Positions 20,818 to 38,681 of a DNA stretch of 64,000 nt are shown one piece after another (within the stretch, counting starts at the first letter, position 1; each line of letters opens with the position of its first letter). Under the pieces are notes generated by a model. It searched no databases and was not told the DNA's origin. It was given only the letters and a program-made list of their open reading frames with translations. The translations under genes and the position numbers were made by a program. Source of the DNA: Candidatus Omnitrophota bacterium (GTDB lineage: Bacteria > Omnitrophota > Gorgyraeia > Duberdicusellales > 4484-171); assembly GCA_014729775.1 (NCBI GenBank), contig WJJJ01000007.1:94302-158301 (forward strand). The letters are read 5' to 3'.

Positions 20818-20845
20818 TTGACTTTTTTTTAAATGTTAGTAAAAT
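20818..20845 (+). promoter_or_regulatory. Sigma70-like promoter (TTGACT-16-TAAAAT) in the AT-rich region upstream of the biosynthetic cluster
   Basis: TTGACT at 20818-20823, TAAAAT at 20840-20845. Followed by a ~110-nt leader that contains a perfect 12-bp palindrome. Confidence 0.4.
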
Positions 20846-20869
20846 TTTAATAATCAAATTTTATCTTCC

Positions 20870-20881
20870 CTCTCGAGAGAG
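20870..20881. promoter_or_regulatory. Perfect 12-bp palindrome CTCTCGAGAGAG in the cluster leader (candidate operator)
   Basis: Read directly from the sequence. Located about +25 relative to the predicted -10, upstream of the AMP-ligase start. Confidence 0.3.
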
Positions 20882-20957
20882 CCTCTTCTTTTGCAGTTTC
20901 CCCTGTGGAGGCAATGTTCACGGGAAGAAAAGCACTTTTTAGGAATATTGTACTGGT

Positions 20958-22478
20958 ATGGACATCGCTTCTCTTCTTTCTTCTCATGCCGCCGATCGGC
21001 CGGGAAAAACCGCGGTACAGACCCGCGGCCGGTCGATGTCGTTCCGTGAACTGGCGCGCCGGGCGTTTCAGGTAAGCGAGTTTCTCGAACGCCGGGGCGT
21101 GGTGAAGGGAACGCACGTCGGGATATTTCTCCCCAACAGCGTTGAGTCGGTGTGGATTCAGCTGGGAATCTTATGCCGGGGCGCAGTCTTGGTACCGCTG
21201 GACTATATGTTATCGCAGGAGGAAGTTATCGCCTTTCTTCATCACAGCGGCGCCGCGCTTCTTTTCTTCCAGCCGAAAAAGGGGATCGATGCCGCCGAGG
21301 TGCGGGCGCGTTGTCCGCACCTGCAGAGTGTGGTGCGCTGCGGCGATTCTCCGGGAGAGGAGCGAGGCGGTGATCTTGACGAGCTTGTTTCGTACAGCGG
21401 TCGGGAGCCGAAAGGTTCCGTGTCTCCGGATGATCCGGCGGCGCTGTTTTATACTTCGGGTTCGACGGGGCGGCCCAAAGGGGTGGTACTCAGTTTTGGA
21501 CATCTGGATAATCCCGTTGAAACGATAGGAAAATATTTGCAGGTGGAGGAGACAGACGTGTTTTTGTGCGGAGGAGTTCCGTTTTCTCATGTGGGCGGTC
21601 TCGATTATCTTCTTCTGACAGCCTCGTTCGGCACGACGCTGGTGCTCATGGAGCGTTTTCATCCTTTGGAATTCCTGAGAAACATCGCGGAGTTCGGCGT
21701 GACGATATTTTGCATTGTTCCGGCGATGTATGTCGCGATCCTTGCCCTGAAAGAGTACGAACGGTTTGATCTGTCTTCTCTGCGCTACGCCGTAGTATTC
21801 GGCGCTCCTTCTTCTCCGGCGTTATTGTGCAGGTTTCACCGGATGTGTCCCAATGCCGGAGTGCTCAACGGATGGGGCATGACCGAAACCGCCGCACCGA
21901 ACACGTTTTCTCCCCGGGACGAGGAAAAATTAAGCACGATCGGACGGTTTGAGCTCGGCACTGAAGCGCGGTTGAGCGATGATGCCGGACGGGAAATCTC
22001 CGGCCCGGGAGAAGGCGAGTTATGGGTGCGGGGGCCGGCGGTGATGAAGGAATATTTTAAGGACCTGGAACTTACCCGGCAGACAATCACGCCAGAGGGA
22101 TGGCTGAAAACAGGAGATATCGCCCGTCGCGACCGGGAAGGCATCTATACTATTGTAGGAAGAAAAAAGGATATGTTAAAGGTTGCCGGAGAGATCGTGT
22201 TTTGCGCCGAGGTCGAAGAGGCGCTCCAGATGCATCCGGAGGTGCGGGAAGCCGCCGTGATCGGCGTTCCCGACCGTTTCCGCGGAGAGGTGCCCAAGGC
22301 TTTTGTGGTTTTACGGGACGAGGCGGCGCATGGTGGCGAACATCTGCGGGAGTTCCTTCGCGCGCGCCTGGCCCATTTCAAAATTCCGCATTTTTTCCAG
22401 GTGTGCGGTTCATTGCCGAAAAACAGAACAGGGAAGATCGATAAACGGCTGTTAAGGAAAACAGAAGAATCCGTATAA
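20958..22478 (+). CDS. AMP-dependent synthetase/ligase (acyl-CoA or aryl-CoA ligase, ANL superfamily)
   Basis: AMP-binding motif YTSGSTGRPKGV, A8/A10-like motifs (GWLKTGD..., PKNRTGKIDKRLL). 506 aa. Confidence 0.85.
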   Translation: MDIASLLSSHAADRPGKTAVQTRGRSMSFRELARRAFQVSEFLERRGVVKGTHVGIFLPNSVESVWIQLGILCRGAVLVPLDYMLSQEEVIAFLHHSGAALLFFQPKKGIDAAEVRARCPHLQSVVRCGDSPGEERGGDLDELVSYSGREPKGSVSPDDPAALFYTSGSTGRPKGVVLSFGHLDNPVETIGKYLQVEETDVFLCGGVPFSHVGGLDYLLLTASFGTTLVLMERFHPLEFLRNIAEFGVTIFCIVPAMYVAILALKEYERFDLSSLRYAVVFGAPSSPALLCRFHRMCPNAGVLNGWGMTETAAPNTFSPRDEEKLSTIGRFELGTEARLSDDAGREISGPGEGELWVRGPAVMKEYFKDLELTRQTITPEGWLKTGDIARRDREGIYTIVGRKKDMLKVAGEIVFCAEVEEALQMHPEVREAAVIGVPDRFRGEVPKAFVVLRDEAAHGGEHLREFLRARLAHFKIPHFFQVCGSLPKNRTGKIDKRLLRKTEESV

Positions 22479-22499
22479 ACCGTTAAGGAGGAATACGTT

Positions 22500-23249
22500 A
22501 TGATGCAGCGGGACGTGCATATGAAACCCGGAGATTTACTCGAGTCGCTCCAGTTTCAGCCTGGTGATTTCGGTCCGGTCGCACTGGTGAGCGGACAGCC
22601 CCACCGGGCAAAAATGTGCCTTAAGAAGCTTGAGAACCCGGTGAAAAATTTTACCTTTTTGGGGTATACGTTTTGGACCGGGACCTACCAGGGGCAGAAG
22701 GTTACCGTAGGCAATGGAGGATTTTATGCGCCTGATTCGGCTTTTGTCACCGAACTGCTCTGTTTCGGCGGAGTCGACATATTAATCCGGCTGGGATCTT
22801 GCGGAGCGCTGCAGGAACAAATTGAGATCGGGGATTTTATCGTCGCGGATAAGATTCTTCGCGGAGACGGCGCGACCCGGTACTATGTGGATGATTCCTT
22901 TGTGCCCCGCGTGGACAGTGCACTTGCGAATTCCCTGTGTGCGCTTTTCCGCGGAGTGGGCACGGTGCACCAGGGCGGGATCTGGACCACGGATGCATTA
23001 TTCAAGGAAACCAAAGAGATCGTCAATCCTTATATTGAACGCGGCGCGATCGCCGTTGATATGGTGACTTCTCCGTTCGTGACCGTGGCCAATCAATACG
23101 GGAAGAAATGCGCGGCCGTGCTGTCGGTTTCGGACAATCTCATTACGGGCCGGCTCGGATTCACGGATTTTCGGTTTTATGAAGCGGAATTGAAGATGAC
23201 CGACGCGGTTTTTCAGCTCGTTGCGCAGAGCGAGGGAGCAAAAAAATGA
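22500..23249 (+). CDS. Nucleoside phosphorylase, PNP/UDP (phosphorylase-1) family; possible MTA/5'-deoxyadenosine phosphorylase
   Basis: 249 aa. Fold motifs (VTVGNGGFYAP, GSCGAL, DMVTSPF). AAGGAGG RBS. Confidence 0.65.
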   Translation: MMQRDVHMKPGDLLESLQFQPGDFGPVALVSGQPHRAKMCLKKLENPVKNFTFLGYTFWTGTYQGQKVTVGNGGFYAPDSAFVTELLCFGGVDILIRLGSCGALQEQIEIGDFIVADKILRGDGATRYYVDDSFVPRVDSALANSLCALFRGVGTVHQGGIWTTDALFKETKEIVNPYIERGAIAVDMVTSPFVTVANQYGKKCAAVLSVSDNLITGRLGFTDFRFYEAELKMTDAVFQLVAQSEGAKK

Positions 23250-23536
23250 ACATTGAATGGAGGCCCGATGCCGAGCAGGTGTTTCAGCAGGTCGTTTCTC
23301 ATTTGCCGCAGTTCCACCGGAGTATCGCGGAGCGGCTGGTAAGAGAAAAAGCCCCGGAACTCGCGCGGTCCCGCCAGGCGGAAAGAGTCACCCGGGAAGA
23401 CGTGATAGGCGCCTTCATGCAGGAAGTTCCCCCGGCTTTCAAAGAGATGCTTGAGCGGTTGCTTCACAAGCTGCGCATTCCCTGGGACGGTTCCCAAAAT
23501 GATCGAGCACAGACAGCAGATCAGGATACGGACTAG
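23246..23536 (+). CDS. PCP_red-like small protein (protochlorophyllide reductase C-terminal-domain-like)
   Basis: 96 aa, ATGA-coupled to the upstream gene. N-terminal W..DAEQVFQQV..LPQFHRSIAERLVREKA resembles standalone PCP_red domain proteins. Confidence 0.4.
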   Translation: MNIEWRPDAEQVFQQVVSHLPQFHRSIAERLVREKAPELARSRQAERVTREDVIGAFMQEVPPAFKEMLERLLHKLRIPWDGSQNDRAQTADQDTD

Positions 23537-23939
23537 CGCGGATCTCGTTTTTGATGAATGCGTCCGCTGGTGGAGAAGTCCGTGGTGGCCGCCGGTTCCG
23601 GTGGAGTTCCGGGAACTACAGCGTCACGCGGGAGAATGGGTATACGAACAGAAAATCAACATGCCCTGCGGTCCCCGATGGCGGGTGCGGCAGGTGCGCG
23701 CCGACCGCGGAGCGAAACGCGTCGAACGGAGATTTACCCGGGGAGTTTTTTCCGGCGGCGGGGAGCTGATAGATCTTCTGCCGGAGGAGGCGTCAACGAA
23801 AATTTCGTACGAGTTTTCTTTCCCTTCCCGGAATCCGGCGGTGGTATGCGCCTGGTACGCGGTGGCGAAATATTTTCACCGGCAAAGCGTGCAGAGAGTA
23901 TTCCATGCGATGAAAACCTATCTGGAGGCGGATGAATGA
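23499..23939 (+). CDS. SRPBCC-fold protein (polyketide cyclase/dehydrase-like), Trp/Arg-rich
   Basis: About 146 aa from the internal Met. Start is uncertain and it overlaps the previous gene out of frame. Fold assignment is by similarity pattern only. Confidence 0.4.
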   Translation: MIEHRQQIRIRTSADLVFDECVRWWRSPWWPPVPVEFRELQRHAGEWVYEQKINMPCGPRWRVRQVRADRGAKRVERRFTRGVFSGGGELIDLLPEEASTKISYEFSFPSRNPAVVCAWYAVAKYFHRQSVQRVFHAMKTYLEADE

Positions 23940-24946
23940 AAATTGCGGTGATCGGATGCGGCGCCATCGGAGGAACTCTTCTCGCCTATTTGTCCCGCGC
24001 GGGCGCAGACGTTAGGGGCGTAATGAAATCCTCTCAGCTCGCCGATGTGAGCGGAAAGGGCTTGCGGCTGGAAGGTGCGCGCGGCGCGGAGCAGGTCAAG
24101 GTGCGCGGGGTTGAACGTCTTGGGGAACCGGTGGATCTGGCGGTGTGCGCGACAAAAATCCCCGATCTGGAAGAAGCGTTGGAACGCGCCGCGCCGTTTC
24201 TGCGGGACGCGGTTACGGTGACGACTCAGAACGGGGTGGCGGCCGACGCGATTGCGCAGAGGTTCGTTCCCCGGGAGCGGATACTCAGCGGCGTGGTGAT
24301 GTTCGGGGCAACGTACCTGCCGCCTGCGAAGATCGTGCATCATTTTGAAGGTCCTCTTTTGCTGGGGAATCCCTGGGAAAAGAAGGTTCCCCGCGCCGAA
24401 GAGATCAAAAGGGAGTTGTCCCGGGCGGTGGAAATTTCTTTCTGTCCCGACATCCTTGGTGCAAAATATTTGAAATTATTCGTGAACCTGAATAACTGTG
24501 TTCCGGCAGTGCTGGGCTGTTCTTTGCAGGAGGCGTTTTCCTCTCCCGAAATTGCGGAAATCGCCGTTCGGTTAAACCGCGAAGCCTACCGGGTAGTGGC
24601 CGCGCGGGGGATCGTCCTGCAGAGTTTACCCACCTATCCCAAGGAACGGTTGGAAAAATTGGTGTCACTGCCGGTAAAAGAGGCCGCGGGAATTTTTTCT
24701 CGTATTATGCAGTCTTTGAGCGAAACTCCGGTGTACGGTTCGGTTTTGCAGAGTATCCGCCGTGGACGCAGGTCGGAGATCGATTATTTAAACGGAGAAA
24801 TAGTGCGGCTGGCCGCACAGGGTTCTCAGCCGGCGTTCTATAACCGGACTATCGTGGACATGGTGCATTCCGTGGAACAATCGGGACGCTTTTTCTCCCG
24901 GGAGGAATTAGTGAAAAAAATGGAGCAAGAAAAGGAGGCGGCATGA
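23936..24946 (+). CDS. Ketopantoate reductase-like (ApbA/PanE family) NAD(P)-dependent oxidoreductase
   Basis: N-terminal Rossmann motif MKIAVIGCGAIGG. 336 aa. ATGA overlap with the upstream gene. Confidence 0.75.
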   Translation: MKIAVIGCGAIGGTLLAYLSRAGADVRGVMKSSQLADVSGKGLRLEGARGAEQVKVRGVERLGEPVDLAVCATKIPDLEEALERAAPFLRDAVTVTTQNGVAADAIAQRFVPRERILSGVVMFGATYLPPAKIVHHFEGPLLLGNPWEKKVPRAEEIKRELSRAVEISFCPDILGAKYLKLFVNLNNCVPAVLGCSLQEAFSSPEIAEIAVRLNREAYRVVAARGIVLQSLPTYPKERLEKLVSLPVKEAAGIFSRIMQSLSETPVYGSVLQSIRRGRRSEIDYLNGEIVRLAAQGSQPAFYNRTIVDMVHSVEQSGRFFSREELVKKMEQEKEAA

Positions 24947-25542
24947 GCGCAGATCCGCAGCCCAAGATCGTATTTCCCAAAATAAAACTCACGGTCATTA
25001 AGAAAGAAGGGCATTGTTATCATCATTATGAGGTGGGTGACGAATTCATCCTGGACGACTTCACCCATCCGCCGAAGCATTTTTGCGCCGGTATTGTGAA
25101 ATCCGCGTTTCCCTGTTTTTATGCGCTTACCTTCGGGTCTGAATTCAAATTCATGGACAATACCAAATCGATTACGACTACTTGTCCCGATAACGGGAAG
25201 CTCACCTTTAAAATCGAACTGCTCGACGAACAGGGCGGGGTAATCGAAAAACCTAAGGAGAAGCCGCCGAAACCGAATCCGAAGCAGCTGGAGATTGAGG
25301 TGGAGGAAGTCCGCGGGCATTGTTTTTTCGGATACAAAAAGGGGGATACGTTTCGTACTACCGGGTTGAAAACCCCCGTGGACTTCTGCGGCGCGGCGTA
25401 CAGCGTGCTGTTCCCGGTATTGTTCGCGCTGAATTTCGGCGCCGAATTCCCGTTCGAAAAAAACCCGGTGTGCAAAACAGGAATCACCTGTCCCGATGGC
25501 GGCAACATCAAATTTAAAATTACAAGAGTGGAGGACCGATGA
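24943..25542 (+). CDS. Tandem-duplicated TIGR04076-like protein (two Cys/His-rich repeats)
   Basis: Two homologous halves of about 90 aa, each with EGHC/RGHC ... GDEF/GDTF ... FCxxxxxxxFP ... ALxFGxEF ... CPD(N/G)G ... FKI motifs. 4-nt overlaps with both neighbouring genes. Confidence 0.55.
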   Translation: MSADPQPKIVFPKIKLTVIKKEGHCYHHYEVGDEFILDDFTHPPKHFCAGIVKSAFPCFYALTFGSEFKFMDNTKSITTTCPDNGKLTFKIELLDEQGGVIEKPKEKPPKPNPKQLEIEVEEVRGHCFFGYKKGDTFRTTGLKTPVDFCGAAYSVLFPVLFALNFGAEFPFEKNPVCKTGITCPDGGNIKFKITRVEDR

Positions 25543-26792
25543 GAAGAGTCGTGATTACCGGACTCGGCGTGATCTGCGCCGCCGGAGAGGATAAAGACCG
25601 GTTTTATCAGAATTTGATCGACGGGGTGCCCTGCATTGAACGGGTTGAGAATTTTGACGTGAGTTTGTTTAATTCCAAAATTGCCTCTCAGGCGGCGGAT
25701 TTCGATCCGCGCAAATTTGATATTCCGGATTTTCAGCGCATGGACCGTTACGTCCAGATGTCACTGGCGTCGGCGAAACAGGCCGTGGACGATTCCGGGA
25801 TCGATTTTTCCCGGACCGACCGGCGCCGGTGCGGCGTGGTGCTCGCCAACGCGATCTGCGGCACGCGTTTCATGGAGGAAGAATTTTTGCTGGTGACCGA
25901 CTGGGGAAAAAATCCCATTGATCCGCGCAAAGGGCGTCCCTACCTGTATGACGCGGCCATGTTTAATACTCCCAGCGCGGAAATCGCGGCGCGTTACCGC
26001 ACACAGGGGATCAACTGTACGATTTCGACCGGGTGTACCGCCGGCACGGATTCGATCGGGTTTGCCTACGAGTTGATTCGGGAGGGCCGGCAGGAGTGCG
26101 TGCTCGCCGGCGCGGGAGAAGCGCCGATCACGCCGATCACCTTCGGCGCGTTCGATGTGGTAAACGTATTATCCAAAAGAAACGACGATCCCCATCGCGC
26201 GTCAAGACCGTTTGATCACCAGCGGGACGGATTCGTCATTTCCGAGGGCGCGGGAATTCTGATGCTGGAGGAATTAAATCATGCCCGGGAACGCGGCGCG
26301 CAGATCTATGCCGAAATCACCGGATACGGAACCAGTTGTAACGCCTATCATATGACGGATCTGCCGCCGGACGGGGAACCTATGGCCAGGTGCATGCGTG
26401 ATGCGCTTGCCGAAGCCGGCATTCCTCCGGATAAAATCGGATATGTGAACGCCCACGGCTCTTCCACCCGGCAGAACGACGCTTTTGAAACCGACGCGTA
26501 TAAAAAGGTATTTCAGGAGTATGCGTATCACGTACCCATTAGTTCCATAAAGTCCATGATCGGACATCCTTTGGCGGCGGCGAACGCGGTGGAAAGCGTA
26601 CTGTGCTGCATGGTGTTCCGGCACGGGTATCTTCCGCCGACGATTAATCATGAAGAGCCGGATCCGAAATGTGATCTCGATTACATACCGAACACGAAAC
26701 GAGAGGGTGCGCCGGAGTACATCCTGAAAACGAGCAGCGGGTTTTCCGGCATTCATTCTTCGATCGTTTTCAAAAGATGGAGCGCGCGATGA
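25539..26792 (+). CDS. Beta-ketoacyl synthase, type II PKS KS-alpha-like (FabF family), catalytically complete
   Basis: Active-site Cys in ISTGCTAGTDS. His residues in VNAHGSSTRQND and KSMIGHPLAAAN. 417 aa. Confidence 0.9.
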   Translation: MRRVVITGLGVICAAGEDKDRFYQNLIDGVPCIERVENFDVSLFNSKIASQAADFDPRKFDIPDFQRMDRYVQMSLASAKQAVDDSGIDFSRTDRRRCGVVLANAICGTRFMEEEFLLVTDWGKNPIDPRKGRPYLYDAAMFNTPSAEIAARYRTQGINCTISTGCTAGTDSIGFAYELIREGRQECVLAGAGEAPITPITFGAFDVVNVLSKRNDDPHRASRPFDHQRDGFVISEGAGILMLEELNHARERGAQIYAEITGYGTSCNAYHMTDLPPDGEPMARCMRDALAEAGIPPDKIGYVNAHGSSTRQNDAFETDAYKKVFQEYAYHVPISSIKSMIGHPLAAANAVESVLCCMVFRHGYLPPTINHEEPDPKCDLDYIPNTKREGAPEYILKTSSGFSGIHSSIVFKRWSAR

Positions 26793-28024
26793 AGGAACGA
26801 GTAGCCATTACGGGAATGGGAATAGTATCGCCCTGCGGTCTGAAAAAGGAAACGTTCTGGGCGAATTTGAAGCGGGCCGGATCGTACGTGGAAACCGTCA
26901 CACGATTCGACACGTCACTGTATCCGAGCCGGATCGCCGGACAGGTGCATGATCTTGATCCCTACACCCACCTTTCCGGCCGGTTGATCAAAAAAATCGA
27001 TGTGTTTTCTCATATGGCGCTGGTCGCCAGCGAACAGGCGCTTCAGGATGCCGGAGTGGATCCTGCCTCGGTGGACAAGAACCGGGTGGGGGTTTTCATG
27101 GGAAATGCTCTCGGTGGATGGCTGTTCGCGGAAACCGAGCTCAGAGACATGTATATCGAGGGTCGGGAAGGAATTTCGCCGTATATGGCCAGCGCGTGGT
27201 TTCCCGCGGCTCCGCAGGGACAGATTACGATTTATTATGGATTCAAGGGGTACAGCAAAACGATAGTCGCCGATCGAGCTTCTTCCGGACTCGCGTTATG
27301 GTACGGCGCAAGGACGATCAGGCAGAAAAAGAACGATTACGTATTGGCCGGAGGGATGGAAGCGCCTATTACCCCGTATGCCTTGCTGTGTGCCAATACC
27401 ATGGGCGGGTTATCGAAACAAAACCTCACGCCTGCCTCGGCGTATAAACCGTATGATTTATACCGCGACGGATTCGCCCTCGCAGAGGGCGCGGGCACCC
27501 TGATGCTGGAAAGCGAGACACAGGCGCGCCGGCGCGCGCGGCAGATTTACGGGTATCTTCAGGGGATCGGCTTTGCCTCGGACGGATACCATTACGCCCG
27601 GAGCGCTCCGGATTCGAGCGCGCTTGAATACGCGATCACCCAGTGCCTTGAAGATGCCGGATGGAAGACCGGCGAGGTCGATTACGTGTGTTTGGACGCG
27701 GAAGCGAGTCAGGTCGGCGACTGGTTGGAGTCCCGGGCGTTGAGAGAGGTGTTCGGCGCACATTGCGACCGGATGGCCATGAGCGCACCGAAATCGATGT
27801 TCGGTAATCTGTTGGGCGCGCAGACCGCGGTTGATCTGATTCTCACGTTGCTCTCGATGGAGCACGAGACGGTCCTGCCGACGATCAACTATCAAATGCA
27901 TGATCCTTACTGCGGGCTTGATTACACGCCGAACGTTCCCCGCCGCAGATCCATGCAAAAAGCGCTGCTGCTGTCCCGGGGCCGGGGCGGAATCCATGTG
28001 GTGGTGGCGGTCGAGAAAGCCTGA
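26777..28024 (+). CDS. KS-beta / chain-length-factor-like ketosynthase paralog lacking the Cys-His-His triad
   Basis: Thiolase fold, but the Cys position reads IVADRASSG and both His motifs are replaced (LDAEASQVGD, SMFGNLLGAQ). Overlaps KS-alpha by 16 nt. Confidence 0.8.
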   Translation: MERAMKERVAITGMGIVSPCGLKKETFWANLKRAGSYVETVTRFDTSLYPSRIAGQVHDLDPYTHLSGRLIKKIDVFSHMALVASEQALQDAGVDPASVDKNRVGVFMGNALGGWLFAETELRDMYIEGREGISPYMASAWFPAAPQGQITIYYGFKGYSKTIVADRASSGLALWYGARTIRQKKNDYVLAGGMEAPITPYALLCANTMGGLSKQNLTPASAYKPYDLYRDGFALAEGAGTLMLESETQARRRARQIYGYLQGIGFASDGYHYARSAPDSSALEYAITQCLEDAGWKTGEVDYVCLDAEASQVGDWLESRALREVFGAHCDRMAMSAPKSMFGNLLGAQTAVDLILTLLSMEHETVLPTINYQMHDPYCGLDYTPNVPRRRSMQKALLLSRGRGGIHVVVAVEKA

Positions 28025-28041
28025 GAAACAAAGGAGGGAGA

Positions 28042-28275: not shown

Positions 28276-28279
28276 TCCG

Positions 28280-31550: not shown

Positions 31551-31587
31551 TGATGTGCTCACAGAAGAAAAAATAAAAAAGGAGGAG

Positions 31588-33051
31588 ATGATGAAGGTTT
31601 TATTCGTTTCACCGAAACTCGGTGCATGGGCTACTCACGGAGAACACCGGGCGCCGAACCAGCTCTACGCGCAATGGGCCGCGTATATCCGGCAGCAGGG
31701 CTATGAAGATCTGGAAGTGCTGGATTGTAAGGCCTGGGATATTCCCATGGACGCAATGGTGGAAGAGGTCAAAAAAAAGAAACCGGATGCGGTGGTGTTG
31801 GGCGACATGCTGCATTCCTACGGAGGATTCGCGATCTTGTGGTATTTCAACGAAACCGCTTCGCGGATCAAGCATGCGCTGCCGCAGACCAGGATTATTG
31901 TCGGAGGGCTTTGGTATTCATCGATGCCGACGGAAACACTAAAGCAGAATCCCGCGATTGATTACGTGGTGATGGGAGAAGAGGAAGCGTTCTGCGAATT
32001 GATCGACGCGCTGGCAAAGGAGAAGTCAACCGAAGCGATTCCCGGGGTGACTTCGAGGATTGACGGGAAAGTCGTGCTGGGGCCGCACCGTCCTCTGCGG
32101 ATGGATCTGGATTCTCTTCCTTTGCCGGCCTATGATTTGTTTCCGATGGACAAATACGTCGGCCATACGCACTGGAAGCCGTTCGTGGAAATGGTAACCT
32201 CACGGGGCTGTCCCTCGGCCTGTACGTTTTGCTACGAGTGGGACCAGTATGATCCCCGGCACCCGGAAGATTTCCTCAAATGGCGGGCCAAGTCCCCGGA
32301 ACGGGTGATCGAGGAGCTGGAGTTACTGCACACGAAGTTCGGCACTAAGGTGGTGGTCATCCAGGACGATAACTTTAACGTGAATCCCGACCGCGTGAAG
32401 CGGTTTTGCGAATTGAAGAAAGAGCGGAATATTCCGGTCAAATGGGTGTCACTGGGCCGTGCAGTGGATTGGATCAACTGCGAGAAAATTCTTCCGCTCA
32501 TGAAAGAAACCGGGATGTTTATCGGAGTGTTCGGGATCGAAGTGACGACTCCCGAAGAATTAAAGCAGATCGCCAAAGGGATCACGGTTGAGCAGATCCA
32601 GAAAACCGTGGAAATTCTTCGCGCCAATGATATCGCGATCGTTGCCGATATCATGATGGGGTTTGACGACGATACCGAACAGCGGATTAAACAACGTTAC
32701 GAATTTACCGACAAAGTCGATCCCGACATTCTTTGGATCGGATACGTCACGCCCGCGCCGAATTCGCCGATTTGGCGGCAGCGGGTGAAACGGGGGGAGA
32801 TCGATCCGTCCAAGATCGATTTCCTGAAGTGGGATTTTCTCCATCCGGTAATGGATACCCCGCATCTGACGGTGGATGATTACGGCCGGTTGGGCGCATG
32901 GTGCATGCGGGAATTTTATTCGAAACCCGGGCGCATCCAGCGGATCATGACCAGTGATTTTGACGAACTCGCGAAACTGTGTTTCCAGGACGTGATGCGC
33001 GGAGTTTCGAAATGGGAAGAAGGAGCAGTGAAGGGAGAGAAACACATCTGA
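31588..33051 (+). CDS. B12-binding domain radical SAM enzyme (class B rSAM)
   Basis: N-terminal B12-binding-like region. CxxxCxxC radical-SAM cluster motif in GCPSACTFCYEWDQ. GGAGG RBS. Start is the first or second ATG of MMKV. Confidence 0.85.
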   Translation: MMKVLFVSPKLGAWATHGEHRAPNQLYAQWAAYIRQQGYEDLEVLDCKAWDIPMDAMVEEVKKKKPDAVVLGDMLHSYGGFAILWYFNETASRIKHALPQTRIIVGGLWYSSMPTETLKQNPAIDYVVMGEEEAFCELIDALAKEKSTEAIPGVTSRIDGKVVLGPHRPLRMDLDSLPLPAYDLFPMDKYVGHTHWKPFVEMVTSRGCPSACTFCYEWDQYDPRHPEDFLKWRAKSPERVIEELELLHTKFGTKVVVIQDDNFNVNPDRVKRFCELKKERNIPVKWVSLGRAVDWINCEKILPLMKETGMFIGVFGIEVTTPEELKQIAKGITVEQIQKTVEILRANDIAIVADIMMGFDDDTEQRIKQRYEFTDKVDPDILWIGYVTPAPNSPIWRQRVKRGEIDPSKIDFLKWDFLHPVMDTPHLTVDDYGRLGAWCMREFYSKPGRIQRIMTSDFDELAKLCFQDVMRGVSKWEEGAVKGEKHI

Positions 33052-33062
33052 CGAATCGTGAA

Positions 33063-33101
33063 GATCCTTGATTCCTGATCCAGGATCCCGAATCAAGGAT
33101 C
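33063..33101. repeat. Near-perfect 39-nt palindrome (GATCCTTGATTCCTGATCC-A-GGATCCCGAATCAAGGATC) between the rSAM and amidohydrolase genes
   Basis: Read directly from the sequence. Outer 12-bp arms are perfect inverted repeats. A related 13-mer CTCGATCCTTGAT recurs at 41541-41553. Confidence 0.6.
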
Positions 33102-33116
33102 GAGCATCTATTTATT

Positions 33117-34034
33117 ATGATTTGCGACGCGCACATTCATTACATTCCGCAAGAGCTTTCCGAGCATACTTCGTTTTACCGCGGAGTATGGACGCGCAGG
33201 GATGCGTTGTACCGTTATCTGGAGGAGGAAGGGATCGAACGGGCCCTGCTGGTATATCCTTCCACCGACGCTCATCTCAAGATCGGGATTCGGGACACCG
33301 TGCGGATGTATAACTCCGCGGCCGAACGGGTGATGCGGGATAATCCCAAAGTGCTCGCGGCGGCCTTGGTAAATCCGCACGAACGGGATTCTCTGGAGGT
33401 GCAGATTGATTCCCTTGCGCGGCGGGGATTCCGGGCGGTCAGCCTGAGTTCAAGTTACGAGGGCAAGTTTCTGGTGCGGGAACTGTTTCCGCTTTTTGAC
33501 GCCGCCGCCCGGCATCAAATGGCGGTGTACATTCATCCTCAGACCATTAACCCGATCGGTTTTGAACGGGTCAAAGATCCGCTGCTGATGCCGGTTCTTG
33601 AATACAGCTTTGACCTTTCGATGTGCATGGGATTAATGATGATGGAAGGGGTGTTTTCCCGCTTTCCCCTGCCGTTTGTGTTTTCCTCGCTGGGCGGAGT
33701 GATTCCCCTGCTCGCCGGCCGTTTCGATCGGGTGTATGCGATGCTGCGCGCGCGGGGATACGTGAAGGATTTAGGCCGGCCGCCCACGGAAATCCTGGGC
33801 ACGGTGTATGTTGATATTTCCGGAGCGACGCCCGCGACGCTGGCGTTGGCCCGAGATCTTTACGGGGATGACCGTCTTCTCTGGGGTTCCGATTATCCGG
33901 TACACGCCGATGCGGACCGGCGCGGTGCGTTACTGGCGGATGTTCCCGCGGCCGCCAGGCGTAAAATTCAGCGGGAGAATTTTTTTGCGGTGTTCGGTAT
34001 GACGATTCCGCCGGGAAAAAAGGAGCGGGAATGA
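33117..34034 (+). CDS. Amidohydrolase family protein (amidohydrolase_2/TIM-barrel metal-dependent hydrolase)
   Basis: N-terminal MICDAHIHY metal-binding motif. 305 aa. No SD is visible upstream. Confidence 0.75.
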   Translation: MICDAHIHYIPQELSEHTSFYRGVWTRRDALYRYLEEEGIERALLVYPSTDAHLKIGIRDTVRMYNSAAERVMRDNPKVLAAALVNPHERDSLEVQIDSLARRGFRAVSLSSSYEGKFLVRELFPLFDAAARHQMAVYIHPQTINPIGFERVKDPLLMPVLEYSFDLSMCMGLMMMEGVFSRFPLPFVFSSLGGVIPLLAGRFDRVYAMLRARGYVKDLGRPPTEILGTVYVDISGATPATLALARDLYGDDRLLWGSDYPVHADADRRGALLADVPAAARRKIQRENFFAVFGMTIPPGKKERE

Positions 34035-34837
34035 TCGTATACGTGAACGGCTCTTTTCGCGATCAAAGTGCCTGCGGAGAAGTGTATGAACCCGGCTTTC
34101 TTTTCGGATGGGGATTGTTTGAAACCATGCGGGTCTACGGCGGCAAGCTTCCTTTTCTCCATCTGCATCTGGAGCGGTTGAAACGCGGCATGGGCCTGGT
34201 GCGTCTGGAACCGGTTTCATGTGAATGGGAACATACGCTGCAGGAAACACTGCGGCGCAACGAGATAGACGAAGGATACGTGCGTATTTCTGTGTATAAA
34301 CGGAAGGAAGGAACCGGGGTAAGCATATATGCGGCGCCGTTTCGATATTACGGTCCGCAGATGTATGAACGCGGGGTTGATCTTTTCTTTTCTCCCTGTA
34401 CGAGGCATCCCGGCGAGATTGCGTCGCGGGTCAAGTCGATGAGTTATCTGCAGAACCGTCTTGCCTGGCTCCAGGCCCAGGAACAGGGATGCGCTGAGGC
34501 GCTCATGGCCGGTCCCTGCAGAACACTGCTCGGCGGCGCCCGGAGTAATGTGTTTATCGTCCGTCACGGGGAAACAGTTACCCCGGCGGCCCGGGACGGG
34601 GCGTTTGAAGGGGTGACCAGGAAAGTCGTGCTGGATATGCTGAGCGATTTAAAGATACCGTTTCGGGAAGGGAAGGTATCTGCCGGCGATGTGTATGCCG
34701 CCGACGAGGTATTTCTTACCAGCGCGCTCATGGAGATCATGCCGGTCGCCCGCTGCGGACGGCTTGAGGTAGGAACGCGGGAGAAAACCGTGATCCCGGC
34801 ATTGCGCGCCCGGTATCGGGAGATTGTGTATGAGTAA
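34031..34837 (+). CDS. Class IV aminotransferase (branched-chain aminotransferase/ADC lyase family), PLP-dependent
   Basis: 268 aa with fold-type IV motifs (ETMRVYGGK, ...NVFIV..G...TP). ATGA overlap with the amidohydrolase. Confidence 0.75.
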   Translation: MIVYVNGSFRDQSACGEVYEPGFLFGWGLFETMRVYGGKLPFLHLHLERLKRGMGLVRLEPVSCEWEHTLQETLRRNEIDEGYVRISVYKRKEGTGVSIYAAPFRYYGPQMYERGVDLFFSPCTRHPGEIASRVKSMSYLQNRLAWLQAQEQGCAEALMAGPCRTLLGGARSNVFIVRHGETVTPAARDGAFEGVTRKVVLDMLSDLKIPFREGKVSAGDVYAADEVFLTSALMEIMPVARCGRLEVGTREKTVIPALRARYREIVYE

Positions 34838-35765
34838 TCCGTCCGGGAAGTTCCAAAGTCCGTTGCTGTTTCCGGTACGGCTCAACCGGGATTCTCTCAC
34901 GGTGCTGGACGAGACCGCCCTGCCGTTTGAGGAAAAATATCATGAGGTGAGGGACCTTGCCGCGGCCGAGAAACTCGTGCGCGAGATGAAAACCCGGTCG
35001 TTAGGACAGGTGCTGTTGTTCTTCGGCTGCGCGGTGTTGTGGGAAAACCGGGTTTCACCCGAGGAGATCGCCCGGCGCATGCACCGGGCGCGGCCTACGT
35101 TCGATTTCGAGTATCTGGCCCGGCTCCTGCGTGCATGGCAGCGGCGGGGAGTTCCCTACCGGACCGCAACGGAGCGGTTCCTCGCCGGATTCGACGCTGC
35201 CCGAAAAGCGCGGGCCGACGAGCTTGCTTCCCTGCTTCCTTCGCCGGCGAATGTGCTGACAATCTGCAACGTGAACGGAGAACTTCTCTATTTGGCGCAG
35301 GCACTGAGCACGCGCAGTGTTCCCGTGCATGTGTATGTGGCAGAAACCAGGCCTTATTTGCAGGGTAGTCGTCTTACCTTTTGGGAGCTTCAGCGTGCCG
35401 GCGTGCCCTCGACACTGTTGTGCCAGTCGCAGGCGGCGGAGATAATGCAGCAGGACACGGTGAATGCCGTCGTGACCGGAGCCGATCGCGCGACTGTCCG
35501 GGGCGATATTATGAACAAGATCGGCACGTACGCGCTGGCCCGCTGCGCGCGGTATTTTAATATTCCGGTGTATGCGTTAACGCAGTATCCCCGGGACGTT
35601 GATATCGACCGGATCCCTCTGGAAGAGCGTCCGCCGGAAGAGGCGTTTCTCTTTTTACCGGATTCCTATCCCCGGGTAGATGCCGTGTATCCGGCGTTCG
35701 ATGTGACCAAAAAGGAATATCTCACCCGGTCTGTCGAATTGAAGGTGTCCAGTGAAATTAGCTGA
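34830..35765 (+). CDS. eIF-2B alpha/beta/delta-family isomerase, MtnA-like (S-methyl-5-thioribose-1-P / 5-deoxyribose-1-P isomerase-like)
   Basis: Conserved C-terminal motif VVTGADRATVRGDIMNKIGTYALA is equivalent to MtnA GADRIAANGDTANKIGTY. 8-nt overlap with the upstream gene. Confidence 0.75.
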   Translation: MSNPSGKFQSPLLFPVRLNRDSLTVLDETALPFEEKYHEVRDLAAAEKLVREMKTRSLGQVLLFFGCAVLWENRVSPEEIARRMHRARPTFDFEYLARLLRAWQRRGVPYRTATERFLAGFDAARKARADELASLLPSPANVLTICNVNGELLYLAQALSTRSVPVHVYVAETRPYLQGSRLTFWELQRAGVPSTLLCQSQAAEIMQQDTVNAVVTGADRATVRGDIMNKIGTYALARCARYFNIPVYALTQYPRDVDIDRIPLEERPPEEAFLFLPDSYPRVDAVYPAFDVTKKEYLTRSVELKVSSEIS

Positions 35766-36222
35766 TATCGATCAGGGAATATTGGTGTGGGGTCCCGTAT
35801 CGGAGGAAGGTCTCGATCGTCTCCAGGCCGAAGGCCGGCTGGCGGTGGCGGCTGAATGCCGGCCTTTTCTGGTGGGACTCAGGTATAATGTTCCGCGGTT
35901 GCAGGCCCGGGGAATCCGGTTCGTGTATTGTCCGGATGAAGCGGTCGGGCTGCTTTGCGGACAGGGACGGCTTGGAAAAACATTTTTGTTTCTCCGGCGC
36001 TTCGATCGGGATACGTTGACGGGGTTAAGCGGCGTGGGGCTGGCGTATGTGCTCAGCCGGCTCCACGGAATTACGATCGAGGAATTTCTTCAGGGACCGC
36101 TTCCGGCGGAGAACTGGGATCCGGACGCGGCAACGCTCGCGAACAAGCCGGTACTTCCCTCCATCGTCCCCCCGGGCAAGGTGAGAAGCCGTGAGACGGA
36201 AATGGTAAGGAGAATCCGATGA
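35752..36222 (+). CDS. Hypothetical protein; possible degenerate paralog of the MtnA-like C-terminal segment
   Basis: GTG start. LQARGIRFVYCPDEAVGLLCGQGRLGKTFLFLRRFDRDTLTGLSGVG parallels LQRAGVPSTLLCQSQAAEIM...VVTGADRATVRGDIMNKIGT of the upstream gene. Could still be non-coding. Confidence 0.3.
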   Translation: MKLADIDQGILVWGPVSEEGLDRLQAEGRLAVAAECRPFLVGLRYNVPRLQARGIRFVYCPDEAVGLLCGQGRLGKTFLFLRRFDRDTLTGLSGVGLAYVLSRLHGITIEEFLQGPLPAENWDPDAATLANKPVLPSIVPPGKVRSRETEMVRRIR

Positions 36223-37211
36223 CCGAAGAAAAGAAAAAGACCGAGATCATCCGCTGGGCCGAACGGCTCAACCAACGAGGACTGGTAAGCGCGCGCAGCG
36301 GGAACCTGTCCTGTAAAGACGGACGGGGAAATCTTTTCGTGACCGCGCACGACAGTTATTTGGGGGATCTTTCTCCGCAGGAGATTGTGCGGATAGATCT
36401 TGCCGGGAAAAAAATCGAGGGAGGACCCGATCCGACCAGCGAGAGTTCCCTGCACTGCGGTATCCACCGGAGATTTCCGGAAATGGATGCGGTAGTGCAC
36501 GCCCATTCTCCGTGGACGACGGCGTTCTTTCATTATTACCGGACACTGGAGATTTTTTCGTTCGAAGCCCGTTTCTACCTGGGACAGCTTCCCGTGATCG
36601 CGCAGGAAACCCCTACCGTGACCGATCCCGAGCCGGTACTGAACGCGCTGGACACGGCGAATATCGTGGTGTTACAGCATCACGGAGTAGTCACCGCGGG
36701 GAAAGACTTCCGGGAAGCCGCAAGTCTCGTCGAGTTGCTCGAAGAGCAGGCACGGGTAAACCTGATGCTTCGTCGTCCTTTTGCCGATGCGGAGAAAGAG
36801 GATTCGCCGGACCGGGAGGAGGCCGTGCAGAAAAAAACGTACCCCATGCTTTCGGTTGCGCACCGTGAGCGGCTCGCGGAAATCGTGAATGGGGACGAAG
36901 AGGTGCAGCGGCTCGGCCGGAAGTACGGTCTTACCTGTACCCTGGCGGTTAGAAATCAGGAAAACGGGAAAACGATGAGGTTTCAATATCAACGGGGGCG
37001 GATTATCAGCGTCGATGAAGCGCGGGACGCCGAATTCGTCATCATAGGGAATGAACCGGTGTTGAAAAAAGTGTTTAACCGGCAGCTGGATCCATTTGTC
37101 GCGTTGACCCAGGGGAAGGTAAAAACAAAAGGTGATTTTTCCAAGATGAGCCGGTGGTATCCGGTGATGGTGCGGACCTTCCAGTTATGGGAGCAGGCAC
37201 CGGTTGAATAA
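36219..37211 (+). CDS. Class II aldolase/adducin-domain protein fused to a C-terminal SCP2 sterol-carrier-like domain
   Basis: N-terminal about 190 aa class II aldolase fold (metal-binding His motifs HAHSPW, LQHHGVV). C-terminal about 110 aa SCP2-like (...GKVKTKGDFSKMSRW...). AAGGAG RBS. Confidence 0.7.
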   Translation: MTEEKKKTEIIRWAERLNQRGLVSARSGNLSCKDGRGNLFVTAHDSYLGDLSPQEIVRIDLAGKKIEGGPDPTSESSLHCGIHRRFPEMDAVVHAHSPWTTAFFHYYRTLEIFSFEARFYLGQLPVIAQETPTVTDPEPVLNALDTANIVVLQHHGVVTAGKDFREAASLVELLEEQARVNLMLRRPFADAEKEDSPDREEAVQKKTYPMLSVAHRERLAEIVNGDEEVQRLGRKYGLTCTLAVRNQENGKTMRFQYQRGRIISVDEARDAEFVIIGNEPVLKKVFNRQLDPFVALTQGKVKTKGDFSKMSRWYPVMVRTFQLWEQAPVE

Positions 37212-37244
37212 AGAGCGGAGAAATCAGCCAAAGGAGTCGAGACC

Positions 37245-38681
37245 ATGAATATATTTCCTTATTATATTGACGGCGAGGCGCGCCGCAGCGGGCAGGAAAA
37301 AGAAATAAGAAATCCGGCGAGCGGCGAAGTATTCGCACGGTGCTGGCATGCCCGGCCCGAGGATGTTAAAGACGCGGTGATCGCGGGCAGGCGCGCTTCG
37401 GCCGAATGGGGAGAAGCAACATTTCAGGAACGCGCGATTTTACTGCGAGAGATCGCCCGGGTGCTGCGGGAACACGTGCACGAACTGGCAGAGCTTGAAT
37501 CCAGGGAAATCGGGAAACTGCTCAAGGAATCATTGTTTGTCGATATCCCGCTTGCTGCGGAAGTATTTGAATACTATGCGTCTTTCCTGGAGACGCTCGA
37601 ACAAAAAACAATGGAGAGCGCGTTTGGACGTGAAGAAGTGCTTTTTGATCCCTACGGCGTGTGCGGGATTTTCCTGCCGTACAACGTGCCCCTGATGATT
37701 TTCGGGTACAGCGCCGCCGCCGCGCTCGCGGCCGGAAACGCCGTGATTCTCAAACCCTCGGAGTACGGGCAGTTGTCGGTTTTGCGGCTTATGGGATTGA
37801 TCCGGTCCTTCGATATGCCCAGGGGGCTGGTGCAGGTAGTGACCGGCGAAGGGGGCGTGATCGGGGACTGCCTCTCCAGGAGCGAGGTCGATCTTATTTC
37901 GTTTACCGGATCAAGAAAAACCGCGCAAAGGATTATCCGGAATTCGGCCGATGCCCCCAAGAAGATTATGTGTGAATTGGGCGGAGCGAACGTGACCGCG
38001 GTATGGGAAGATGCGAATCAGGACGCGGCGGTGCAAAATTTACTGGCCTCGTCTTTTCTCAAACAAGGACAGATATGTATCGGTACCAGTATTGCTTTGA
38101 TCGAAGAAAAGATCTATGATCGCTTCATAGAGGAGTTCTGCCGACGGATAGATTTGATTCCTCAGGGAGATCCGTTTTTGCCTGAGACCGGATTGGGCCC
38201 TCTTCCGTCTTCCGAATACGCCGCGGCCGTGGACCGCCGTGTTCGGGAATGCCTGCGCCGGCATGGGGGGCGGCTGCTGCGCGGAGGAGTCTGGGAGAAA
38301 GAATCCGGTCTTGTGTATCCTCCCACGGTTATCGAAGTGCCCCATGTGGTCTATGAAGAATTTTTCGCACCGGTGGTATTGGTCAAGAGATGCAGCCGGC
38401 AGGAGATCGAACCCGCGATTCAGGCGAATCCGTCCGGTCTGGTACTGCAGTTGTGGACGGCGGATGCCGGGCGGGCCCGGTGTATCGCCCGCCGGGCGCG
38501 GTACGGAACGGTGTGGATCAACACCTTCGCCCAGATGAATGCCCAGACTCCGTTCGGAGGACAACGGACGAGCGGGTGGGGCCGGAACCTCGGAAAAGCG
38601 GGGTTTTTTGAGTATGTTCAGCTCAAGCACATAGGGTACGGCAGGCAGTCCAGTCCGGTGGAAGGCTGGTTCGGGGTGTAA
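37245..38681 (+). CDS. Aldehyde dehydrogenase family protein
   Basis: 478 aa. ALDH Glu/Cys motifs (ELGGAN; catalytic-Cys context GQICIGTS). AAGGAG RBS. Confidence 0.9.
   Translation: MNIFPYYIDGEARRSGQEKEIRNPASGEVFARCWHARPEDVKDAVIAGRRASAEWGEATFQERAILLREIARVLREHVHELAELESREIGKLLKESLFVDIPLAAEVFEYYASFLETLEQKTMESAFGREEVLFDPYGVCGIFLPYNVPLMIFGYSAAAALAAGNAVILKPSEYGQLSVLRLMGLIRSFDMPRGLVQVVTGEGGVIGDCLSRSEVDLISFTGSRKTAQRIIRNSADAPKKIMCELGGANVTAVWEDANQDAAVQNLLASSFLKQGQICIGTSIALIEEKIYDRFIEEFCRRIDLIPQGDPFLPETGLGPLPSSEYAAAVDRRVRECLRRHGGRLLRGGVWEKESGLVYPPTVIEVPHVVYEEFFAPVVLVKRCSRQEIEPAIQANPSGLVLQLWTADAGRARCIARRARYGTVWINTFAQMNAQTPFGGQRTSGWGRNLGKAGFFEYVQLKHIGYGRQSSPVEGWFGV

Follow-up and report, generated by a model that had tools for sequence, protein, structure and literature searches.

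The stretch analysed here, referred to below as the window, comprises 64,000 nucleotides (nt) of a Candidatus Omnitrophota bacterium (GenBank assembly GCA_014729775.1, contig WJJJ01000007.1, positions 94,302 to 158,301 of the forward strand), and within it, at positions 20958-38681, lies a block of 20 co-directional plus-strand genes, designated A-T with the fourth written D', as delimited from the list of open reading frames (ORFs) and from Pfam and NCBIfam matches. The block is one operon and very probably encodes an aromatic type II polyketide synthase (PKS) that has been inherited across the phylum Omnitrophota. An initial annotation of this DNA had counted 18 genes here, a number now raised to 20, and nearly every gene that it had named was recovered in its place in the ORF list and by Pfam and NCBIfam. 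The overlapping gene junctions to which it had pointed are seen at 12 of the 19 junctions. The overlap measures 4 nt at seven of them and 14-16 nt at three; at C/D' it is 38 nt and at I/J 29 nt, the last two lengths depending on the ORF starts used. Overlaps of 4 nt also bridge the functional modules of the block (L/M, O/P, P/Q and R/S). The genes are as follows.

A, 20958-22478, plus strand: AMP-dependent acyl ligase of the ANL family, putatively activating the starter acid and loading it onto the acyl carrier protein (ACP); Pfam AMP-binding and AMP-binding_C
B, 22500-23249, plus strand: nucleoside phosphorylase resembling the hexameric purine nucleoside phosphorylases (PNP) and 5'-methylthioadenosine (MTA) phosphorylases; Pfam PNP_UDP_1
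C, 23246-23536, plus strand: small protein of 96 amino acids (aa) with weak similarity to PCP_red and DUF2621, both Pfam scores being below gathering
D', 23499-23939, plus strand: putative second SRPBCC protein of 146 aa, related to Polyketide_cyc2 by transitive homology; NCBI GF333_02010
E, 23936-24946, plus strand: ketopantoate-reductase-like NAD(P)H oxidoreductase of the ApbA family; Pfam ApbA and ApbA_C, TIGR00745 above cut-off
F, 24943-25542, plus strand: tandem TIGR04076 protein, each repeat having three conserved Cys
G, 25539-26792, plus strand: KSalpha, the catalytic ketosynthase (KS), with Cys-His-His intact; Pfam, motifs and tree
H, 26777-28024, plus strand: KSbeta, the chain-length factor (CLF), of the Asp-Arg ('DR') type, with the triad replaced by Arg, Asp and Asn
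I, 28042-28275, plus strand: ACP with the GVDS serine motif; Pfam PP-binding
J, 28247-29086, plus strand: PF04199 'Cyclase' (OxyN-type polyketide cyclase family) with the metal motif HSGTHLDYSYH; Pfam
K, 29113-29547, plus strand: SRPBCC monodomain cyclase/aromatase of the TcmN type; Pfam Polyketide_cyc2 and Polyketide_cyc
L, 29553-30686, plus strand: transporter of the major facilitator superfamily (MFS), putative exporter; Pfam MFS_1
M, 30683-31450, plus strand: short-chain dehydrogenase/reductase, putative ketoreductase; Pfam adh_short and KR
N, 31555-33051, plus strand: B12-binding radical S-adenosylmethionine (SAM) enzyme, BchE/HpnJ-like, with CxxxCxxC; Pfam B12-binding and Radical_SAM
O, 33117-34034, plus strand: Amidohydro_2 protein of the ACMSD/LigW-type non-oxidative decarboxylase family; Pfam
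P, 34031-34837, plus strand: class IV aminotransferase/lyase, an optional member; Pfam Aminotran_4
Q, 34824-35765, plus strand: MtnA-like sugar-1-phosphate isomerase of the IF-2B family; Pfam and NCBIfam
R, 35752-36222, plus strand: optional protein of 156 aa, probable truncated IF-2B-like partner of Q, from positional homology
S, 36219-37211, plus strand: class II (metal-dependent) aldolase with a fused SCP2 lipid-binding domain; Pfam Aldolase_II and SCP2
T, 37245-38681, plus strand: non-acylating NAD(P)-dependent aldehyde dehydrogenase; Pfam Aldedh, 378 bits

Many of these assignments are accompanied by motifs readable in the translations: STGRPKG in A, GVDS in I, HxGTHxD in J, CxxxCxxC in N, HxH near the N-terminus of O with an Asp further on, ICN and GADR in Q, HAH and HH with a preceding Glu in S, and ELGG and QICIG in T. 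These, together with the motifs of KSalpha, we take to be the catalytic residues of the respective families, ICN and GADR presumably representing the catalytic Cys and Asp of MtnA, and ELGG and QICIG presumably the catalytic Glu and Cys of the aldehyde dehydrogenases. The two SRPBCC proteins of the initial annotation fared unequally. K is recognized directly by Pfam, and the second, D', is linked to the family by transitive homology only, a hidden Markov model of the D' family scoring 132 bits against a Polyketide_cyc2 protein of a metagenomic contig (L085, discussed below). Relatives of D' are conserved in 24 loci; D' itself had no direct match in Pfam, a homologue search returned D' alone, an hhalign comparison with the K family matched over 23 N-terminal residues only, and a single-sequence AlphaFold2 (AF2) model reached a predicted local distance difference test (pLDDT) score of 44. 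An ORF of 125 aa at 23558-23935, formerly read as a gene, was rejected as spurious, being of low complexity and having no homologue in 80 related loci; the conserved gene at this place is D', in another frame (23499-23939). R has no Pfam match and is probably a truncated second IF-2B-like protein partnering Q, since the ORF occupying the same position in Candidatus Velamenicoccus matches IF-2B. For F, a confident structure model yielded no function.

The assignment to the type II PKSs is carried by the ketosynthase pair. KSalpha has its triad intact in the motifs TGC, NAHGSS and GHPL, and its best solved relatives are the KSalpha of actinorhodin biosynthesis (1TQY_A, 358 bits) and AntD of Photorhabdus (6SMO_B, 356 bits), the FabF proteins scoring at most 340 bits. 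In a neighbour-joining tree of 27 sequences KSalpha groups with actinorhodin KSalpha, AntD, the Clostridium KSalpha from the presumed clostrubin cluster, and the KSalphas of Velamenicoccus and of the loci L084 and L086, and KSbeta groups with the Clostridium CLF and other CLFs of the Asp-Arg type, each in 200 of 200 bootstraps and with the FabFs outside. Both aligned FabFs have a five-residue gap, in the same region with an offset of a few residues, and there is no such gap in actinorhodin KSalpha or AntD. In KSbeta the Cys, His and His of the triad are replaced by Arg, Asp and Asn, and the solved structures closest to it are FabFs. The Asp-Arg motif at the position of the CLF cysteine is common to most relatives of KSbeta, including those from Clostridium, Ktedonobacter, Archangium and Paenibacillus. 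Actinobacterial CLFs have a canonical Gln, which supports decarboxylative priming; this Gln is not seen in KSbeta. Against the NCBIfam model fabF, with a cut-off of 493.75 bits, KSalpha scores 457 and KSbeta 345 bits, so that neither reaches it. A discrete ACP, a TcmN-type SRPBCC protein and an OxyN-type PF04199 cyclase are all recognized by Pfam in the block, and Pfam analysis of the block proteins revealed no dehydratase or enoyl reductase.

The type II PKS proposed in the initial annotation is thus upheld, and the phylogeny that it had recommended, with grouping of the KS pair among FabF/FabB enzymes named as the outcome that would speak against it, places the pair apart from FabF. A housekeeping FabF or fatty-acid synthase was rejected on the fabF cut-off, the position in the tree, and the lack of a dehydratase and an enoyl reductase. 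Two further candidates were set aside on model scores: a KS of the cispentacin type, for which the AmcF cut-off is 325 bits and KSalpha and KSbeta score 176.9 and 121.1 bits, and a ladderane cluster, N scoring 86.7 bits against the TIGR04072 model of lipid-biosynthesis B12 radical SAM proteins with its cut-off of 360 bits. Among characterized clusters no close match was found; the nearest, that of Clostridium beijerinckii/puniceum, shares core genes only, at 29-44% identity. The clostridial CLFs have been described as an 'ancestral' non-actinobacterial group with a KS-CLF-ACP-TcmN-OxyN architecture (PMC7693217), and Candidatus Omnitrophica is named, with no description of the pairs, in a catalogue of phyla containing KS-CLF pairs (PMC10132072).

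The distribution of the operon was followed through its CLF. In an exact-pattern scan of one genome per species of GTDB, a relative of KSbeta was found in 269 species genomes; as GTDB R232 contains about 705 Omnitrophota species representatives (10.64898/2026.06.07.730766), this corresponds to about 38%, which is a lower bound, given the incompleteness of metagenome-assembled genomes (MAGs) and the exact-pattern matching. Relatives of KSbeta at 66-75% identity are abundant in Omnitrophota, and KSbeta of the window matches a protein of a Candidatus Omnitrophica MAG (locus tag GF333_02030) at 100% identity, in agreement with the non-actinobacterial origin suggested earlier. Exact-sequence queries with KSalpha and with KSbeta of the window matched no recorded contig. 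In an exhaustive search of representatives at 50% identity the Omnitrophota CLFs form approximately one cluster (representative 54% identical), and the next relatives, at 38-42%, come from Clostridium beijerinckii/puniceum, Ktedonobacter, Archangium, Paenibacillus and a Chitinivibrionales MAG.

Gene linkage was mapped by tblastn of the window proteins in the best 80 loci, with 10-kb flanks, and counts per gene refer to the 32 loci that are fully covered. Nearly all of the best 80 loci are labelled Omnitrophota, among them that of Candidatus Velamenicoccus archaeovorus LiM. Two gene orders occur: that of the window, A-B-C-(D')-E-F-G-H-I-J-K-L-M-N-O-(P)-Q-(R)-S-T, and that of the Velamenicoccus clade, (A)-B-Q-(R)-S-T-N-C-(D')-E-F-G-H-I-J-K-L-M-O-N'. 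The adjacency of A and B and the order Q-(R)-S-T are kept in both, T always following S. N also lies near Q-S-T in both; in one it adjoins them, and in the other O and sometimes P intervene. In locus L054 A-B-Q-S-T form a single run. Each of the genes F-K is present in all 32 fully covered loci, E in 31, N, O and M in 30, L in 29, B, C and Q in 28, S in 24, A in 23, and P and T in 14 each, the counts for S, A and T being too low because these genes fall at the ends of the retrieved sequence. N and the shunt genes (Q/S; their function is considered below) occur together in 28 of the 32 loci and are both missing in two, and no locus has shunt genes without N. N, with a median identity of 76% across loci, is better conserved than any other protein of the cluster (B, 68%); C is conserved in 62 loci, homologues of R were found in nine, and the fusion of the aldolase with SCP2 is kept in 33 of 37 loci.

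The composition of the block, the comparison of which with its flanks had been recommended, is native: the block has a GC content at third codon positions (GC3) of 0.645 and its flanks one of 0.613, and codon frequencies correlate with r = 0.93. A recently acquired island was therefore ruled out. The operon has very probably been transmitted vertically across Omnitrophota, and it is not known to have a housekeeping role. A conserved chromosomal position was also considered and rejected, since the genes flanking the block in the window are not next to the cluster in other loci. Omnitrophota chromosomes have 1.3-2.0 Mb, and the operon takes up about 1% of the genome. Full-text literature searches found no description of the operon; polyketides or ketosynthases are not mentioned in the Omnitrophota genome papers PMC10066038 and 10.64898/2026.06.07.730766, whose passages on fatty acids and quinones concern other matters, and the supplement of PMC12583861, consulted for expression evidence, has no matching entries for the cluster copy of Velamenicoccus.

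Several loci depart from the two common arrangements. The complete genome CP070807.1 (L042/L001) has only E-L at the locus, and in CP070684.1 (L003) A, B, C and E are missing upstream of F. In the Velamenicoccus clade (L057, 17436-20092; L058, L062, L067, L070 and L071) a second B12 radical SAM gene, N', encoding a protein about 45% identical to N, follows O, and after it come a HypF-C/Kae1-like gene and hypD, so that genes for hydrogenase maturation border the cluster there. In a subgroup of Omnitrophota (L005, 7856-9984; L006, 2553-3548; L007, 1810-2817) one or two alpha/beta-hydrolase (esterase-like) genes are inserted among those of KSalpha, KSbeta and ACP; their products could be release or editing thioesterases. 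Clusters of the Omnitrophota type are also found in a bin labelled 'Methanosarcinales archaeon' (L038, JAIWAR010000044.1, KSbeta 71% identical) and in one labelled 'Deltaproteobacteria bacterium' (L076, MGQS01000119.1, KSbeta about 55%), where their placement is probably due to mis-binning; the archaeal bin would fit an association of epibiont and prey like that of Candidatus Velamenicoccus with methanogens.

Comparison with clusters outside the phylum separates an older stock of genes from the Omnitrophota additions. The cluster of Clostridium beijerinckii/puniceum (ClrA/ClrB; locus L082, which we infer from species and gene content to be the clostrubin cluster) has homologues of KSalpha (44% identity), the Asp-Arg CLF (38%), the PF04199 cyclase (43%), the SRPBCC protein (42%) and the Amidohydro_2 protein (29%), as well as one or more TIGR04076 domains and ACP, and both hosts are anaerobes. 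An ORF of 175 aa in L082 is matched by both F and ACP and may be read as a TIGR04076-ACP fusion; a second TIGR04076-like ORF and a separate ACP are also present. The Clostridium cluster differs in having a ketosynthase III (KSIII, FabH-like) where the Omnitrophota operon has an AMP-ligase, in lacking the B12 radical SAM gene, the phosphorylase/isomerase/aldolase/dehydrogenase set, the ketopantoate-reductase-like gene and the MFS transporter, and in having tailoring genes of its own (CMD, DUF362, DUF169 and hydrolases, two of them alpha/beta hydrolases). The closest relative outside Omnitrophota is a metagenomic cluster, L084/L085 (GCA_021812725.1 and an ENA contig), which shares, in the same order, a C-like protein, a D'-like SRPBCC protein, the ketopantoate-reductase-like protein (39% identical to E), two single TIGR04076 proteins, KSalpha (56%), CLF (41%), ACP, the cyclase (45%), the SRPBCC protein (55%) and the Amidohydro_2 protein (36%), the C-like and D'-like proteins being those of L085. 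Taken together, J is 43-45% and K 42-55% identical to the counterparts in Clostridium and L084. Within the contigs L084/L085 there is no ligase, radical SAM or shunt gene, and the cluster has its own aldehyde:ferredoxin oxidoreductase, FMN reductase and two amine-oxidase-like flavoproteins, the first lying just upstream of the ketopantoate-reductase-like gene in L085 (1222-3093). In another contig (L087, DAOTTL010000293.1, 8123-10732) KSalpha and KSbeta are fused into a protein of 869 aa, and beside the fusion are genes for a UbiA prenyltransferase, a SnoaL-like protein, an FAD monooxygenase and two methyltransferases; this looks like a cluster for a prenylated aromatic polyketide or quinone.

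Judged by their homologues in the Clostridium and L084/L085 clusters, C, D', E, F and O belong to an older toolkit of this PKS clade, and the Omnitrophota-specific additions number ten (A, B, L, M, N, P, Q, R, S and T). The initial annotation had counted the TIGR04076 protein, the PCP_red protein and the amidohydrolase among the added, unusual partners of the PKS core; these three, like E and the second SRPBCC protein, are instead members of an accessory set found also in other non-actinobacterial type II PKS clusters.

The added genes include a group whose products resemble enzymes of SAM by-product disposal. The best solved relative of B is the 5'-methylthioadenosine phosphorylase of Sulfolobus (1JDS, 94.5 bits), those of Q are methylthioribose-1-phosphate isomerases (about 100 bits), and those of S are class II aldolases, including the 5-deoxyribulose-1-phosphate aldolase DrdA (6BTD). 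A cluster of phosphorylase, isomerase and class II aldolase is the signature of 5'-deoxyadenosine/5-deoxyribose disposal, which gives dihydroxyacetone phosphate (DHAP) and acetaldehyde (PMC6079011), and B, Q and S conform to it. The 'methionine-salvage-like' set of the initial annotation is therefore better compared with this DHAP shunt, here extended by an aldehyde dehydrogenase and a ligase. The DHAP shunt (DrdK or a phosphorylase, DrdI and DrdA; MtnP-MtnA-Ald2) likewise combines an MTA-phosphorylase-like protein with an MtnA-like one and a class II aldolase, and the characterized systems are described, in passages of PMC6079011 and PMC12632272, as yielding DHAP and acetaldehyde or methylthioacetaldehyde. 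The set of the window differs in that the aldolase is fused to SCP2, there may be a second small isomerase subunit, the set is extended by an aldehyde dehydrogenase and an acyl ligase, the equivalog cut-offs are missed, and the whole is embedded in a PKS operon. The scores are 17.5 bits against a cut-off of 274.85 for MTA phosphorylase (MTAP), 152 against 279 for MtnA, 58 against 137 for MtnB and 96 against 267 for the aldolase model PRK08333. An identity of B as an orthologue of HpnG or futalosine hydrolase was rejected, its scores being far below the cut-offs, and N, at 201.7 bits against BchE (cut-off 481.35) and 145.3 bits against HpnJ (cut-off 577.6), is related to these proteins and not an orthologue of either. 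The nearest solved relatives of A, at about 200 bits, are FadD5, feruloyl-CoA synthetase, FadD13 and MenE, acetyl-CoA synthetase scoring 178 bits; A thus appears to be a general acyl/aryl ligase and not an orthologue of acetyl-CoA synthetase.

N is the only SAM-cleaving enzyme of the operon, and it is therefore plausible that B, Q, S and T act on its adenosine-containing product. On balance, a functional coupling of the shunt genes to the polyketide pathway is favoured. Two known systems are instructive here. In the fluoroacetate pathway of Streptomyces cattleya a 5'-fluoro-5'-deoxyadenosine phosphorylase, an isomerase, an aldolase and a fluoroacetaldehyde dehydrogenase act in succession, and the logic of the four steps, which turn a 5'-substituted 5'-deoxyadenosine into a substituted acetic acid, is identical. 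It differs in that the SAM-cleaving enzyme of the window is a radical SAM protein; no member of the fluorinase/chlorinase (SAM hydroxide adenosyltransferase) family was found by Pfam or NCBIfam among the 20 proteins, and halogenation is not indicated. Fluoroacetaldehyde is known there as a common precursor (PMC7162832). A precedent for the modification of an aromatic polyketide by a radical SAM enzyme is the methylase of the anthraquinone coelulatin (PMC9714029), which is HemN-like and has no B12 domain, in contrast to the BchE/HpnJ-like, B12-binding N.

The best explanation is that of one aromatic-polyketide operon of the 'ancestral' non-actinobacterial type II, inherited vertically, in which a SAM by-product is recycled as the starter; for this account as a whole the chances appear evenly balanced. 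A would load a carboxylic-acid starter onto ACP. Priming by a separate enzyme would be expected because the Asp-Arg CLF lacks the Gln for decarboxylative priming, a task that would fall to KSIII in Clostridium and to A here. KSalpha and CLF would then extend the starter with malonyl units, M and/or E would reduce the chain, J, K and D' would cyclize and aromatize it, and O would decarboxylate it. N, possibly with C, would carry out oxygen-independent tailoring, either C-methylation or an anaerobic oxidation or C-C step, and L would export the product. The 5'-deoxyadenosine-type product of N would be phosphorolysed by B and isomerized by Q (with R), S would cleave the isomerized sugar into DHAP and an aldehyde, and T would oxidize the aldehyde to an acid, which would be the substrate of A, namely acetate if the product of N is plain 5'-deoxyadenosine. 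The by-product of SAM would in this manner be returned to the PKS as its starter. A non-acylating dehydrogenase followed by an adenylating ligase is the expected two-step route for loading a carrier protein. The proposal that the shunt-derived acid is the starter is a tentative one, and the broader proposal that ribose carbon of SAM becomes a building block of the polyketide, either as the starter on ACP or as a carboxymethyl arm, is doubtful.

Several observations weigh against parts of this account. The tree on which the placement of the KS pair depends contains neither the actinorhodin CLF nor AntE. The closest relatives of A use medium-chain or aromatic acids and not acetate, and the cut-offs for MTAP, MtnA and MtnB/aldolase are missed, so that the shunt enzymes may act on other substrates. 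The feature least well accounted for is the conserved SCP2 domain of S, which would serve no purpose on plain 5'-deoxyadenosine and suggests that the substrate bears a hydrophobic substituent. The reduced locus of CP070807 may mean that the core works without the additions, or that these are elsewhere in the genome, and in L085 an aldehyde:ferredoxin oxidoreductase is present with no shunt, so that aldehyde chemistry may be ancestral and independent of SAM.

A first alternative accepts the type II PKS operon and sees in the phosphorylase, isomerase, aldolase and dehydrogenase mere disposal of 5'-deoxyadenosine and MTA, encoded close to the radical SAM gene so that both are expressed together, A priming the PKS with an unrelated acid, endogenous or derived from a host. 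It is a possible but rather doubtful reading. The trio matches the disposal clusters already described (PMC6079011), 5'-deoxyadenosine is reported in a passage of PMC8102628 to inhibit radical SAM enzymes, genomes as small as these make a single disposal copy inside the operon plausible, and the resemblance of A to ligases of medium-chain and aromatic acids rather than of acetate is readily accommodated. Disposal alone, however, accounts poorly for an A-B adjacency that survives rearrangement and for the single run A-B-Q-S-T of L054, for a non-acylating T that always follows S, or for shunt genes that in none of the 32 fully covered loci occur without N, and it too leaves the SCP2 fusion unexplained. 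That domain keeps alive another model, in which, in the manner of HpnH and MqnE, N or N' would attach the 5'-deoxyadenosyl radical to an sp2 carbon in a hydrophobic intermediate, after which B would remove adenine, Q/R would isomerize, S, with SCP2 holding the hydrophobic part, would cleave off DHAP, and the remaining -CH2-CHO arm would be oxidized by T and activated by A for extension or ring closure. The retention of the SCP2 fusion in nearly all loci, the scores of T against models of phenylacetaldehyde dehydrogenase, the aryl and medium-chain relatives of A, and a BchE/HpnJ-like N not close to known methylases all speak for such an adduct. Both known pathways of adenosyl addition use a PNP_UDP_1 enzyme in the next step, and B has weak matches to HpnG (45 bits) and futalosine hydrolase (23 bits). 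These matches are, however, far below the cut-offs, those of T to dehydrogenase models are generic, and to our knowledge the adenosyl-adding radical SAM enzymes have no B12 domain, which N has; the model is accordingly regarded as unlikely.

The remaining two alternatives question the unity or the class of the operon. The KS pair might belong to a specialized fatty-acid or lipid synthase, FabF-, ladderane- or polyene-like, the cluster making an unusual membrane lipid. The substantial scores of both KSs against the fabF model, the FabFs as best solved relatives of KSbeta, the antiSMASH 'ladderane' calls reported for Omnitrophota MAGs (PMC9902471), the lipid-binding SCP2 domain, and a conservation throughout the phylum that resembles a primary function could all be cited for it. 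It is nevertheless very unlikely, as both KSs stay below the fabF cut-off, KSalpha is separated from the FabFs in every bootstrap, a dehydratase and an enoyl reductase are lacking, the Clostridium cluster likewise has two cyclase types and a decarboxylase-like protein, and N, at 87 bits, is far from the ladderane-type radical SAM cut-off of 360. A chance juxtaposition of two or three independent operons (for the PKS core, SAM salvage and radical SAM) is hardly credible: the E-L remnant in CP070807 and the optional P and R would be in keeping with it, but the full set recurs in two gene orders, N and the shunt genes stand beside the core in 28 of the 32 loci, and 4-nt overlaps join the modules, so that chance is contradicted by conserved linkage.

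The surroundings of the operon are those of a housekeeping region. Upstream lie gatB, an S41 protease gene, tsaD, mgtC and a bactofilin gene, and downstream are rplU and a glutamate-5-kinase-like gene (amino-acid kinase and PUA domains). The tRNA-Met that the initial annotation had placed about 500 nt upstream was located at 20370-20444, 514 nt ahead of gene A, and sites at the start of the block and before rplU, where promoters had been proposed, are sigma-70-like:

20818-20845, plus strand: candidate sigma-70-like promoter ahead of A, TTGACT-16-TAAAAT, 10/12 consensus matches
38715-38743: sigma-70-like site before rplU

The site at 20818-20845 is a consensus match alone, the number of such sites in the region being about that expected from shuffled sequence. 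Between the tRNA-Met and this site lies an ORF of 89 aa (20499-20768, plus strand) of the Cupin_3/EutQ-like type, which was not found adjoining the cluster in other loci. An Rfam search of the window returned two tRNAs only, and no riboswitch or other RNA element. In 16-19 other loci (e.g., L017, 1121-4539) era, a nitroreductase gene and a rumA-like RNA methyltransferase gene are located upstream of the cluster, an arrangement not seen in the window.

Type II PKSs are usually viewed as patchy, horizontally moving accessory clusters, mostly of Actinobacteria. Non-actinobacterial type II PKSs are already known as a kind of system; what is new is the vertical conservation of such an operon throughout a phylum, the defined accessory set including TIGR04076, and the fixed link to a B12 radical SAM enzyme and a ligase-capped module resembling the DHAP shunt. 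The conserved accessory set (the ketopantoate-reductase-like protein, TIGR04076, the second SRPBCC protein and Amidohydro_2) marks a deep-branching, oxygen-independent clade of type II PKSs, and the TIGR04076 family thereby gains its first functional context. The link between radical SAM enzyme, by-product breakdown and acyl ligase suggests a testable logic of priming or recycling, and if ribose carbon of SAM does enter the polyketide, this would be a new way to prime or decorate a type II PKS. Experiments are feasible, given short genes with soluble products and a relative of the operon in the enrichment-cultured Candidatus Velamenicoccus archaeovorus. Omnitrophota are characterized in passages of PMC10066038 as ultra-small and often host-dependent or predatory. 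The retention of the operon in at least 269 species, with its additions and at about 1% of small genomes, argues for a physiological role central to the lifestyle of Omnitrophota. On the doubtful reading in which SAM ribose carbon is built in, a product whose operon has been retained by an entire phylum of genome-reduced, host-dependent nanobacteria would be a metabolite that defines the lineage, for instance a redox shuttle, a signal or a factor in predation, and not an accessory antibiotic.

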